Below, in pieces: positions 53,978 through 56,350 of a stretch of DNA of 64,000 bases. The stretch's first letter is position 1. Every line of letters starts with the position of its first letter. The position numbers and the translations under genes were made by a program. Under the pieces are notes generated by a model, which saw only the letters and a list, made by a program, of their open reading frames with translations, did not search any database and was not told where the DNA came from. The stretch comes from a bacterium (GTDB lineage Bacteria; Patescibacteriota; Microgenomatia; Curtissbacterales; GWA2-41-24), in the NCBI GenBank assembly GCA_021813945.1, contig JAKAJD010000002.1:173936-237935 (forward strand), written 5' to 3'.

Positions 53978-54591
53978 ATCCTAGCTACTCCCAACCTCAT
54001 AAAAACCAAAAATCCTGTAGTCTATCTTATTTGCCCTTAAACTGTTATAGTTTACTAGCATGAAAGGGGGACAAAATGAACGACGATCAGACAAAAGTTG
54101 AAGACCAAAAGAAAGAAGAAGCCAAATCAGAAGAAAAGGCCGAATAGTCTTCACATAAACCAGAAGTAGGCGGATTTGTTATTAAGAGTCCGCCAAACCT
54201 TCTGCTACCAAACCCCATAATATAAATACAAAACCCAAAATCGCCTAAATTTAAAAAAAGTGCTTGCACTGATAGAACAGAAGTGTAAAATAGCAAGTTG
54301 TGGAAAACGATAGACGCGCTTCCATAAGACAAAAGCTCGGCAGAATAGGTGTTGCTGCAGCTATTTTTATTGCCTGTCCCGGTGATGACATTTTTGCACT
54401 CCTCCCACAAGTTACAGATTCCGACATACCCGCGCAAATCACACCGGCAAGAACCTTAGAATTGTTTCACCTGCACAAACGCCAAGAAGACGAGCACGAA
54501 TTCTTCCCGCCGCCAGAACCAATCGACTAAATTTTTAAAAAGTATTTATCCTGAATGGAATTTAATCCCAAAAAGGAATAAAATTTTTCCA

Positions 54592-55215
54592 ATGCTCGTT
54601 TTCATAGATGAATCGGGAGATCCTGGCTTCCAAACGAAAAGCGGATCCAGTCCAATCTTTGTAGTGGCGCTGGTAATTTTTAACGATTATCTCGAGGCAG
54701 AGAAAACCTCAATAGCCATTAAAGAACTCAGACGAAAACTAAAAGTAGATGACCGATTCGAATTTAAATTCAATAAATGTGATCAGCGGTTCAAAAAAGC
54801 TTTCTTTAACGCCGTCTTAGGTTTTAACTATAAAATAAGAGCTATTATTTTTGACAAAGACTTCATTTACAGCCCAAGACTTAGAAGCTATAAAGAAGAT
54901 TTTTACAGCCATGCCATTATGCAAGTCCTTAAACATAATCAAGGAGAAATAAGAAATGCTAAACTAAAATTTGACAAAAGAGGCGAAAAAGAAATTAGAG
55001 ATAAGTTGCGAGTATACCTCAGCCGAAGCTTAAACAATAAAAAAGGCAAGATCTTCAAAGACCTAAAATTCGAAGATTCCAGACAGAATACTCTTATTCA
55101 ACTTTCTGATATGGTTGCAGGATGTATTGCTGCTGATTATCAAGGTAAGGACAAAAAATGGCTGAAATTATTGAAAGAAAACAGGAGAGTCGATGATATT
55201 TGGCTCTTTAAATAG
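54592..55215 (+). CDS. DUF3800 domain protein
   Basis: N-terminal MLVFIDESGDPGF is the signature start of the DUF3800 family. Confidence 0.65.
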   Translation: MLVFIDESGDPGFQTKSGSSPIFVVALVIFNDYLEAEKTSIAIKELRRKLKVDDRFEFKFNKCDQRFKKAFFNAVLGFNYKIRAIIFDKDFIYSPRLRSYKEDFYSHAIMQVLKHNQGEIRNAKLKFDKRGEKEIRDKLRVYLSRSLNNKKGKIFKDLKFEDSRQNTLIQLSDMVAGCIAADYQGKDKKWLKLLKENRRVDDIWLFK

Positions 55216-55390
55216 TTCGACCTTGCTCCCTAGTCAAACGAATGTTTGACACGCGCACCATACGGTGACAATTCGGAAACAAGGTCTTTGTAACAAGTAT
55301 TATACCGAACAAACCCCAAACTGTAAATCCCTAGAAATCAGAATAAATCATAAGAAAAACCGCCCGGCCAACGGAACCCCCGACCTCATA

Positions 55391-55485
55391 AAAATTGGCA
55401 TAAAATTTCAATAAGTACTTGTCCTGAGCATTCCGAGATGGATTTATGCTGATTGGCATAAAATGCCAAGAAGTACTAAAATTGG
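55391..55485 (+). repeat. Intergenic repeat element copy A (AAAATTGG…AAGTACTTGTCCTGAGC…ATGGATTTATGCTGATTGGCATAAAAT…AAGTACTAAAATTGG)
   Basis: It shares blocks ATGGATTTATGCTGATTGG[C/A]ATAAAAT, AAGTA[C/T]TT[G/A]TCCTGAG and AAGTACTAAAATTGG with copy B (56251-56350). A partial copy lies at 54537-54575. Confidence 0.6.
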
Positions 55486-55496
55486 CCGTAACTCAA

Positions 55497-56249
55497 ATGG
55501 CAAATTTCTACGACAGAATCGGCAAAAAATTCGGCGGTTATGCATACGGATCCAATAAGCCCAGGTACACTTCAGAATATCCAGCAGGCGACCCGGAAAA
55601 AGTTTTTAAAGACGAAATTTTAAAACTCAAATCAAACCAAAAAATTGTCCTAGATATCGGCTGCGGTGACGGCAAATTTGCTTTTGAGCTTAGTCCTTAT
55701 TTTAAAAAAATTGTAGGCATAGACAATTCAAAGCAGTTATTAAAAGTTGCCGCTCATAAATTAAAAGAAGCAAAAGTAAAAAATTTAGAATTTATCTTTG
55801 CAAATGCCCAAAAAATCCCCTTTCCAACCTCGAAATTCGACATCGCCATCAACCGCCGCGGACCAAGCTTTTATCCCGAATATCATCGTATCCTTAAAAT
55901 TGGCGCCTATTATCTGGAAATTGGCATTGGCGAAAAAGACACGAAAGAACTCAAAGAAATCTTCGGTAGGGGACAAAATTATCAAAATTGGGACCAGTCC
56001 CGCTTAAAAAAAGATGTTTCCGAATTCAAAAAACTCGGCTTCAAAATAATATTAGCTAAAGACCTTTATTACCAGGAATATTATCCAAATTATCACCAAA
56101 TAGACGTATTTTTACAGGGCGTTCCGATTTTCGAAGACTACGAAACCAAAAAAGACAAAATATTGTTAGACAAATACATCAAAAAATACCAAACAAAAAA
56201 TGGAATTGTCTTAAACCGCCACCGCGTAGTCTACAAACTGCAAAAATAG
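55497..56249 (+). CDS. Class I SAM-dependent methyltransferase (orphan)
   Basis: Motif I VLDIGCGDGKF, a post-I acidic residue, and motif II/III. The ORF extends to 55446, but that part lies inside the repeat, so the ATG at 55497 (MANFYDRIG) is preferred. Confidence 0.7.
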   Translation: MANFYDRIGKKFGGYAYGSNKPRYTSEYPAGDPEKVFKDEILKLKSNQKIVLDIGCGDGKFAFELSPYFKKIVGIDNSKQLLKVAAHKLKEAKVKNLEFIFANAQKIPFPTSKFDIAINRRGPSFYPEYHRILKIGAYYLEIGIGEKDTKELKEIFGRGQNYQNWDQSRLKKDVSEFKKLGFKIILAKDLYYQEYYPNYHQIDVFLQGVPIFEDYETKKDKILLDKYIKKYQTKNGIVLNRHRVVYKLQK

Positions 56250-56250
56250 C

Positions 56251-56350
56251 AAAATTGGATTTATGCTGATTGGAATAAAATTCTAAGAAGTATTTATCCT
56301 GAGTTCATCGAACGTACTTGTGCTGAGCGCAGTCGAAGTACTAAAATTGG
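56251..56350 (+). repeat. Intergenic repeat element copy B
   Basis: See copy A. It contains the inverted repeat AGTACTT…AAGTACT. Confidence 0.6.

Follow-up and report, generated by a model that had tools for sequence, protein, structure and literature searches.

What are the short repeats that stand on either side of a methyltransferase gene in the genome of an uncultured bacterium of the candidate phyla radiation (CPR)? The gene lies in a 64,000-nucleotide stretch of contig JAKAJD010000002.1 (GenBank assembly GCA_021813945.1), hereafter the window, which has a G+C content of 38% and whose genes have homologues carrying the names Microgenomates, Daviesbacteria, Levybacteria or Patescibacteria. 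The original prediction for this locus described two direct repeats, A (55391-55485) and B (56251-56350), with a partial copy before a DUF3800 gene, and offered three explanations: an element resembling a miniature inverted-repeat transposable element (MITE), recombination sites delimiting a gene cassette, or a shared promoter/operator module. The third is the best supported, as units consisting of a -35-like hexamer, 18 nt and TAAAAT lie 6-24 nt before start codons in two genomes. We hold with moderate confidence that the repeats are a lineage-specific family of promoter-region modules that has been duplicated, tandemly amplified and recombined among the spacers of a small mosaic accessory (defense) island. 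The finding is real yet ordinary; judged from their sequence, the units most likely behave as ordinary sigma-70-type promoters and call for no new mechanism. On the + strand, the island reads as follows: a S-adenosylmethionine (SAM) riboswitch with a 100-amino-acid open reading frame (ORF100), hicB/hicA, ORF76, the DUF3800 gene, repeat A, the methyltransferase gene, repeat B, ORF105 and a type I restriction-modification (R-M) operon.

The blocks said to be shared between the repeats are present at the positions claimed and are above chance in shuffle and expectation tests. There are exactly two matches to the block GGATTTATGCTGATTGG[C/A]ATAAAAT (55440-55464 and 56257-56281), which at up to three mismatches gave 0 matches in 100 shuffles. 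The 16-nt block AAGTAYTTRTCCTGAG is found without mismatch at 55413 and 56288, with one mismatch at 54540 and with two at 56312; at up to three mismatches it has 8 matches versus 1.7 expected. The end block GAAGTACTAAAATTGG is exact at 55470 and 56335 and is identical in A and B. The partial copy before the DUF3800 gene is also borne out by an exact 15-mer common with B (54540-54554 = 56288-56302); by nhmmer alone it is not significant (E=1.6).

The description of A and B as direct repeats of about 100 bp flanking the methyltransferase gene stands for the shared blocks but not for the colinearity. The AAGTAC..CCTGAG block comes before the GGATTTATG block in A and after it in B, and colinearity extends over at most 37 nt, at 92% identity (55439-55475 versus 56256-56292), to which the 16-nt end block is added. 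In B, these two parts are 48 nt apart, and the gap contains a 24-nt tandem repeat present in 2.3 copies (56287-56342). Similarly, the internal inverted repeat reported in B exists, but its arms measure 6 nt (GTACTT at 56314-56319 and AAGTAC at 56336-56341) rather than 7, the preceding base being C. A and B are mosaics of three short modules, not two colinear repeats.

These modules were resolved by aligning all copies. Module Q is TTGGMATAAAATnnnAARA; its first six bases are -35-like, and it includes the weak dyad TTGGnAT-AAA-ATnCCAA. Module P is AAGTAYTTRTSCTGAG, which contains a -35-like TTGnnC and of which GGATTTATGCTGA is a variant. The -10 module is GAAGTRCTAAAAT, i.e., GAAGTRC-TAAAAT. 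The modules are arranged as P-Q-TAAAAT upstream of the DUF3800 gene, as Q-P / P'-Q-(-10) in repeat A ahead of the methyltransferase gene, as P'-Q-P-P-(-10) in repeat B ahead of ORF105, and as P-(-10) in a further segment, module X, ahead of ORF76. All copies lie on the gene strand, are intergenic and fall within about 2 kb in each genome.

Each repeat has two halves. In the first half of repeat A (A1, 55391-55428), a Q with the dyad TTGGCATAAAATTTCAA (55395-55411) is fused to a P (AAGTACTTGTCCTGAG, 55413-55428), and no -10 is found at a usable distance downstream. The second half (A2, 55438-55485) is composed of the P variant ATGGATTTATGCTGA (55438-55452), a Q with the perfect dyad TTGGCAT-AAA-ATGCCAA (55453-55469) and the -10 module GAAGTACTAAAAT (55470-55482). 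A promoter scan of A2 returns TTGGCA-18-TAAAAT (55453-55482; -35 at 55453-55458, -10 at 55477-55482), which matches 10 of 12 consensus positions and is the predicted promoter of the methyltransferase gene. The first half of repeat B (B1, 56251-56303) contains the P variant TTGGATTTATGCTGA (56255-56269), the Q TTGGAATAAAATTCTAA (56270-56286) and the P AAGTATTTATCCTGAG (56288-56303); it matches A2 at 92% over 37 nt, with all 3 differences in the dyad and 2 of them compensatory. The second half (B2, 56312-56350) is a P-type unit, TTGTGC-18-TAAAAT (56318-56347), in which the P ACGTACTTGTGCTGAG supplies the -35-like hexamer (56318-56323) and the -10 module GAAGTACTAAAAT (56335-56347) the -10 (56342-56347). 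It lies partly in the tandem repeat and, like the unit of module X, is of the P type.

Two further complete units precede the DUF3800 gene and ORF76. The former (54555-54584; nhmmer E=5e-6) is a Q-type unit, ATGGAA-18-TAAAAT, with the -35 at 54555-54560 and the -10 at 54579-54584; immediately upstream is the partial copy of the original prediction, a P module with the 5' extension AATCGACTAAATTTTTAAAAAGTATTTATCCTGA (54521-54554) and 1 mismatch to the block pattern. The P-type promoter of module X (54239-54291) comprises a 5' extension (AATCGCCTAAATTT), an A-tract and the P AAGTGCTTGCACTGA, giving TTGCAC-16-TAAAAT (54264-54291) with hexamers at 54264-54269 and 54286-54291. Positions 54239-54272 are paralogous to 54521-54554 at 76% identity. 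From the end of the -10, the start codon is 7 nt away for the DUF3800 gene (54592-55215, + strand), 14 nt for the methyltransferase gene, 8 nt for ORF76 (54300-54530, + strand, GTG start) and 92 nt for ORF105, behind which the type I R-M operon follows.

The second of these distances depends on the start of the methyltransferase gene. Public gene calls give a protein of 267 amino acids from ATG 55446, the longest open reading frame, which begins inside repeat A. Nearly all homologues are 250-257 amino acids long and align from ATG 55497. The true start is therefore probably ATG 55497, the annotated one being 17 codons early, and with that start repeat A is wholly intergenic. The resulting gene (55497-56249, + strand) encodes a class I SAM-dependent methyltransferase of 250 amino acids (Pfam Methyltransf_25/31/11). 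It had been called an orphan methyltransferase, a label that we withdraw: it is not the DNA methyltransferase of an R-M system, and the family is widespread in Microgenomates, which account for hundreds of the proteins of about 250 amino acids among its 798 homologues, themselves mostly of that length. If this assignment is right, both the start codon and the label of the gene need correction.

The comparison that carries most of the argument is with the locus of the closest relative found, L038, which was reached through the methyltransferase (78% amino acid identity). At least one sequencing run (SRR13300764) contains this relative together with the window organism, and one ENA assembly series also includes both. 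The two loci share only four small modules, namely, the riboswitch with ORF100, module X, the DUF3800 gene with an antisense RNA (DUF3800-IX), and the methyltransferase open reading frame, and these stand in a different order on different backbones. In L038, a complete unit (TTGGAATAAAATTCTCAAAAGTACTAAAAT, 14706-14735) ends 6 nt before the DUF3800 ATG and is the orthologue of window 54555-54584; an alignment of 54556-55327 with L038 14707-15477 at 82.6% identity spans it. In this single comparison, 11 of 12 hexamer positions and 11 of 18 spacer positions are identical. A second unit, identical to the first, lies at 15515-15544, after the DUF3800-IX RNA and before a LexA-like gene and another R-M system; the stretch 15515-15549 is the positional orthologue of A2 (83% over 35 nt). 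L038 has a 33-nt perfect direct repeat on either side of the DUF3800 gene and its RNA. A long form, Q-P...Q-(-10), occupies 13955-14040, with its -10 ending 24 nt before a DUF5674 gene. All three complete L038 units were flagged by the promoter scan at 9-10 of 12 positions. The Q+P fusion of A1, which recurs in B1, is found as well at L038 13955-13986 (90.6% over 32 nt).

The units are the sole intergenic stretches of this spacer that can still be aligned between the window and L038, where coding DNA is 76-83% identical. Module X as a whole (54010-54291) is 85% identical to L038 8733-9009, and its promoter precedes ORF76 in the window and a DUF1905 gene in L038; the L038 form of this promoter, GAGTTTACACTGAGCTATAGCGAAGTGCTAAAAT, can be aligned by eye with B2. 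The methyltransferase orthologue (L038 10001-10753) is in a different context, about 4 kb away, and has a canonical promoter, TTTACA-16-TATAAT. This promoter is unrelated to that of A2, yet it ends 12 nt before its ATG, as compared with 14 nt in the window. Two strain variants (L053 and L054) are 99.98% identical to L038 and add nothing new.

In the other loci compared, the modules are absent. Where DUF3800 loci are 71-78% identical (L044-L046), the RNA is retained, yet the promoters are different ones and there are no units. Neither of two ORF105 loci (L047 and L048) has a B-like repeat; both carry a TTGACA block of their own, which is conserved at window 56401-56422. Because these loci lack the units, the family appears confined to two related lineages, over about 2 kb in each; the units are also not bound to one gene family.

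We can now describe how the units might work. A Q or a P with TAAAAT 16-18 nt farther on would constitute a sigma-70-type promoter, and such units would fire just upstream of the DUF3800 gene, the class I methyltransferase gene and ORF76, and probably also ahead of ORF105 and the type I R-M operon. Transcription presumably starts at the units, and the dyad may be bound by a regulator. The Q+P fusions that lack a -10 (A1 and B1) would be decayed duplicates or auxiliary binding sites. Since ATG 54592 lies only 7 nt past the -10, the DUF3800 mRNA is likely leaderless, and the genes behind the units would in general be leaderless or nearly so, with starts that appear to have no Shine-Dalgarno sequence. 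The units resemble sigma-70 promoters of leaderless or short-leader genes in their -35-like hexamers (TTGGCA, TTGGAA and TTGTGC), in the 16-18-nt spacer, in the TAAAAT that follows a conserved GTRC, and in their position on the gene strand 6-14 nt before starts without a Shine-Dalgarno sequence. Other promoters of the window have an extended -10 to which the -10 module is similar; examples are GTGCTATAAT, ahead of the SAM riboswitch, and TGCTAAAAT, at 12279. In contrast to sigma-70 promoters of the usual kind, the units are repeated between neighboring genes and, in any one genome, are near-identical, the spacer and as much as 20 nt of upstream sequence included; several copies are truncated fusions with no -10. 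If the assignment holds, it marks likely promoters and probable leaderless starts for the DUF3800 gene, the methyltransferase gene and the R-M operon of an uncultured CPR bacterium, and it reveals the island as a mosaic of small promoter-plus-gene modules.

Several observations weigh against a purely promoter-based account. The region contains 9 promoter-like matches, as compared to 10.1 +/- 3.5 in shuffles; because matches are no commoner than in shuffles, agreement with the consensus is by itself weak evidence. The -35 hexamers match at only 3-5 of 6 positions, and a spacer of 18 nt is close to the upper limit of what is usual. The promoters are predicted from sequence. Half of the Q and P copies (A1, B1 and 54521-54554) are without a usable -10, which promoter function does not explain, and the fusions of this kind (A1, B1 and L038 1a) have nevertheless been kept between the genomes, at the 90.6% given above. 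Copies within a genome are more alike than orthologous ones, as seen in the perfect L038 repeat and in the 92% identity of A2 and B1; to account for this likeness, recent duplication or gene conversion has to be invoked, and neither is expected under a model of promoters alone. Finally, the Q dyad with its two compensated pairs hints at selection for pairing, or for a symmetric site, beyond the -35. A sigma-54 reading of TTGGCAT...TGCC was rejected by inspection, as the GG-to-GC spacing is 9 nt instead of the required 11 and B has no GC.

An operator array is a possible, though rather unlikely, account of the dyad. Under this model, the Q dyads, and perhaps the P repeats, are sites for one regulator that overlap each -35 and co-regulate the island genes, and a second site, which in A and in L038 copy 1 lies 56-58 bp farther upstream, would permit cooperative binding or looping; TTGGCATAAAATGCCAA is the sequence linked to this candidate operator. 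The model refines the promoter model and does not replace it. Operators are known to overlap promoters in defense and R-M islands, as do the controller-protein boxes of R-M systems, and the present sites resemble them in placing a dyad over the -35 of genes that adjoin an R-M system, sometimes with a duplicate upstream. Each of the 8 Q copies has the dyad, in which 91% of cells pair when G-T is counted, and two pairs are changed on both sides; the observed values were reached by 5-7 of 500 shuffles. Two dyads are perfect (A2 at 7-3-7 and L038 1b at 6-3-6), the two Q copies are spaced alike in A (58 nt) and L038 copy 1 (56 nt), and the spacer between -35 and -10 is conserved among paralogues beyond the need of a bare promoter. 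However, G-T, a mismatch in duplex DNA, makes up half of the apparent pairs; compensatory change is not predicted for a protein that reads bases; and the eight copies are paralogues from only two genomes, such that the shuffle statistics overstate their independence. The dyad is weak in most copies, no regulator gene is common to both islands, and, unlike in the known R-M systems, no controller (C) protein or shared regulator was identified here. No evidence ties ORF105 or the LexA-like protein to the dyad sites: ORF105 homologues elsewhere have none, and the L038 LexA-like gene has its own, different palindrome.

We consider it improbable that the units are cassette junctions, i.e., active or passive crossover sites for the insertion, excision or swapping of modules such as the DUF3800 gene with its RNA or the methyltransferase gene. 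Such a process would resemble integron or Campbell-type integration, after which the inserted gene is flanked by direct repeats. This is the arrangement of the methyltransferase open reading frame in the window, between A2 and B1, and of the DUF3800 gene with its RNA in L038, between the 33-nt repeats. In addition, the L038 methyltransferase gene lies elsewhere with similarity that stops at the borders of the open reading frame, the few modules common to both genomes have been reordered, and the copies are homogenized within a genome. Shared with integron attC arrays are the direct copies that bracket one gene, its different position in a relative with similarity up to the borders of the open reading frame, and a repeat of tens of bases with an internal dyad between successive genes on one strand. 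Against this model, no integrase, transposase or other recombinase Pfam match occurs among the called genes within 10 kb on each side, some small open reading frames being matchless. No IntI lies nearby, and an attC-like R/L core architecture (R''/L''-L'/R') is lacking. A GTTRRRY core is likewise missing: neither strand has a GTTRRRY / RYYYAAC pair where A or B ends, and the only dyad is the 17-nt Q hairpin. Promoter hexamers at fixed distances from start codons are not needed in a pure recombination site; integron cassettes are mostly promoterless, whereas these units bear promoters and functionally precede open reading frames. Nor was polymorphism in cassette content seen among contigs of the window-type strain: all 11 ORF105 contigs that reach upstream retain the methyltransferase gene in the same arrangement, with no empty or alternative site among them.

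Breaks in assemblies might also suggest mobility. Those found in Logan assemblies of several samples lie at 54091/54097, 55195-55224 and 55292 (the ends of L002-L006, L042 and L043), and many DUF3800 homologues are on contigs of about 1 kb. However, the breaks flanking the DUF3800 gene coincide with words of at least 31 nt (31-mers) common with the co-occurring L038-type relative. They result from the assembly of a conserved gene whose flanks vary and do not prove mobility.

It is quite improbable that the repeats are functionless debris, that is, leftovers of local tandem duplication and microhomology-mediated rearrangement in which the hexamers are incidental to AT-rich DNA. The mosaic, non-colinear structure with its 24-nt tandem repeat would be expected of such debris, as would internal deletions between short direct repeats; A2 is equivalent to B minus 48 nt between two GAAGTA words. 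The local distribution of the copies and the chance frequency of promoter-like matches in the region point in the same direction. Against this, the units persist at orthologous positions in L038, although the intergenic DNA around them can no longer be aligned, and they have retained both hexamers and the 18-nt spacing.

A more radical form of the cassette idea strikes us as very unlikely. The P/Q units would be crossover sites of an undescribed cassette-shuffling process in CPR (Microgenomates) defense islands, by which modules that begin tightly at start codons (the DUF3800 gene with the antisense DUF3800-IX RNA, the methyltransferase gene and X) are moved between genomes and loci. The agent would be an unknown recombinase or an unannotated or DUF3800-type protein, and the flanking direct repeats would be its footprints.

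A family of mobile or widely used elements would be expected to have copies elsewhere. The original prediction looked to a wider search for them, and the outcome is local: pattern and profile searches found no further copy in the 64-kb window, i.e., in the other ~62 kb, and none was present in 414 kb of other fetched loci outside the two islands. The GTDB representative genomes, with the source genome not included, were scanned on both strands (596 Gb) with the core pattern ATTGGMATAAAATNNNNANAAGTAYT, which has 19 fixed bases. They yielded 15 single matches in unrelated marine and gut genomes, which we attribute to chance because about 17 were expected. JGI metagenomes scanned with TTTATGCTGATTGGNATAAAAT gave 12 matches. 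Seven of these fall at the 3' end of unrelated methyltransferase-like genes whose products end in ...RFMLIGIK, four lie in another coding frame (YADW.KI), and the remaining one is L027. We rejected the JGI matches as a coincidence of AT-rich codon usage: they show no likeness beyond the 22-mer, and the window copies have stops 6 codons upstream. The methyltransferase-like family itself (L026, L029, L032-L035 and L037; YGGWYG...D.DP motifs) comes from freshwater and marine metagenomes and has the C-terminus ...NRFMLIGIK, whose coding sequence happens to equal the 22-nt repeat core; it is unrelated to the window. Three scans of viral contigs gave chance matches or none.

That the repeats are RNA hairpins (at a 3' end or in a 5' untranslated region), MITEs or repetitive extragenic palindromes (REPs) is hardly credible. 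Like MITEs and REPs with their bacterial interspersed mosaic elements (BIMEs), the units are short intergenic repeats with a small palindrome. The + strand of repeat B folds at -28 to -32 kcal/mol (z = -3.5 to -3.75 versus shuffles), the - strand does not, and the G-U pairs of the dyad favor the + strand. However, repeat A (z = -1.3) and the L038 copies (z = 0.03, -0.17 and 0.5) fold no better than shuffles, most dyad hairpins reach only -1.3 to -2.8 kcal/mol, and two copies fail to form one. The helices of B stem from near-palindromic AT-rich words (AGTACT and ATTTAT) in direct repetition, and Rfam 15 has no match overlapping A, B or the partial copy, either at the gathering threshold or at E<=10. 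As for mobility, the inverted pairs given by a repeat search are internal or due to chance, and none of them sits at the two ends of A or of B. The units thus have no terminal inverted repeats, and no site-specific flanking duplication was seen. The word AAAATTGG does occur at both ends of A and B (55391/55478 and 56251/56343), and 14 times on the + strand of the window; it is not a target-site duplication because the same word is at both copies and is part of the modules. With no dispersal seen in the window or in public collections, the MITE-like option is not supported. REP/BIME elements are palindromes of 20-40 nt that number in the hundreds, often alternate in orientation and come with a RAYT gene. 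The units here all have one orientation and, in the DNA covered, form only 2-3 clustered loci per genome, and the annotated neighborhood contains no RAYT or transposase gene.

The sole real Rfam match in the repeat region is the DUF3800-IX RNA (RF02968; 55215-55286, - strand; 60 bits versus a gathering score of 36.8). It is convergent with the DUF3800 gene, abuts its stop codon and has a predicted promoter, TTTACA-17-TATAAT (55327-55299, - strand), that matches 11 of 12 consensus positions. The DUF3800 protein (207 amino acids; Pfam PF12686, E=4e-17) has 744 homologues, most of them in Microgenomates. The RNA recurs at 58-61 bits at L038 15365-15436, L044 6624-6695 and L046 920-990, and in every relative examined it is antisense and begins at or within 1 nt of the DUF3800 stop. 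The pair always edges variable defense genes: the type I R-M operon in the window, the LexA-like gene and R-M system in L038, and PDDEXK, Fic, N6_N4 methyltransferase and HEPN genes in L044. The association of DUF3800 with this RNA has been described, and the function of DUF3800-associated RNAs is still unknown (PMC5737381). This conserved pair is the more interesting biology of the neighborhood. Between its promoter and repeat A lies a weak terminator-like hairpin with a T-run (55360-55374, - strand), which is absent from L038.

ORF105 (56440-56757, + strand) encodes a small protein with no Pfam domain, and the type I R-M operon hsdM-hsdS-DUF3644-hsdR (56760-63772, + strand) follows it. A few other genomes have a conserved ORF105 (63-70% identity), which there too stands right before hsdM. 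The homologues at L047 and L048 share the upstream block CCTATACGAsTACCyTTGACAAG with window 56401-56422. The TTGACA lies 19 nt from the ORF105 ATG in the window versus about 31 nt in L048. Given that the distance is only 19 nt, the native ORF105 promoter may be crippled, with B2 possibly taking over.

Module X appears portable. Upstream of its promoter are a GC-rich hairpin (GGCGGA...TCCGCC) and a lysine- and glutamate-rich open reading frame of 23 codons (54077-54148; MNDDQTKVEDQKKEEAKSEEKAE) with a Shine-Dalgarno-like GGGGG run. Farther upstream, hicB/hicA (53490-53977, + strand) were assigned by Pfam. The SAM riboswitch (53000-53100, + strand, 56 bits) has a terminator-like hairpin, and ORF100 behind it (53185-53487, + strand) is preceded by a strong Shine-Dalgarno sequence and matches no Pfam family. 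The riboswitch and ORF100 are kept as a pair in L038 (12174-12273), at 87% amino acid identity and in another genomic context; a SAM-regulated 100-amino-acid protein in a CPR genome may merit attention.

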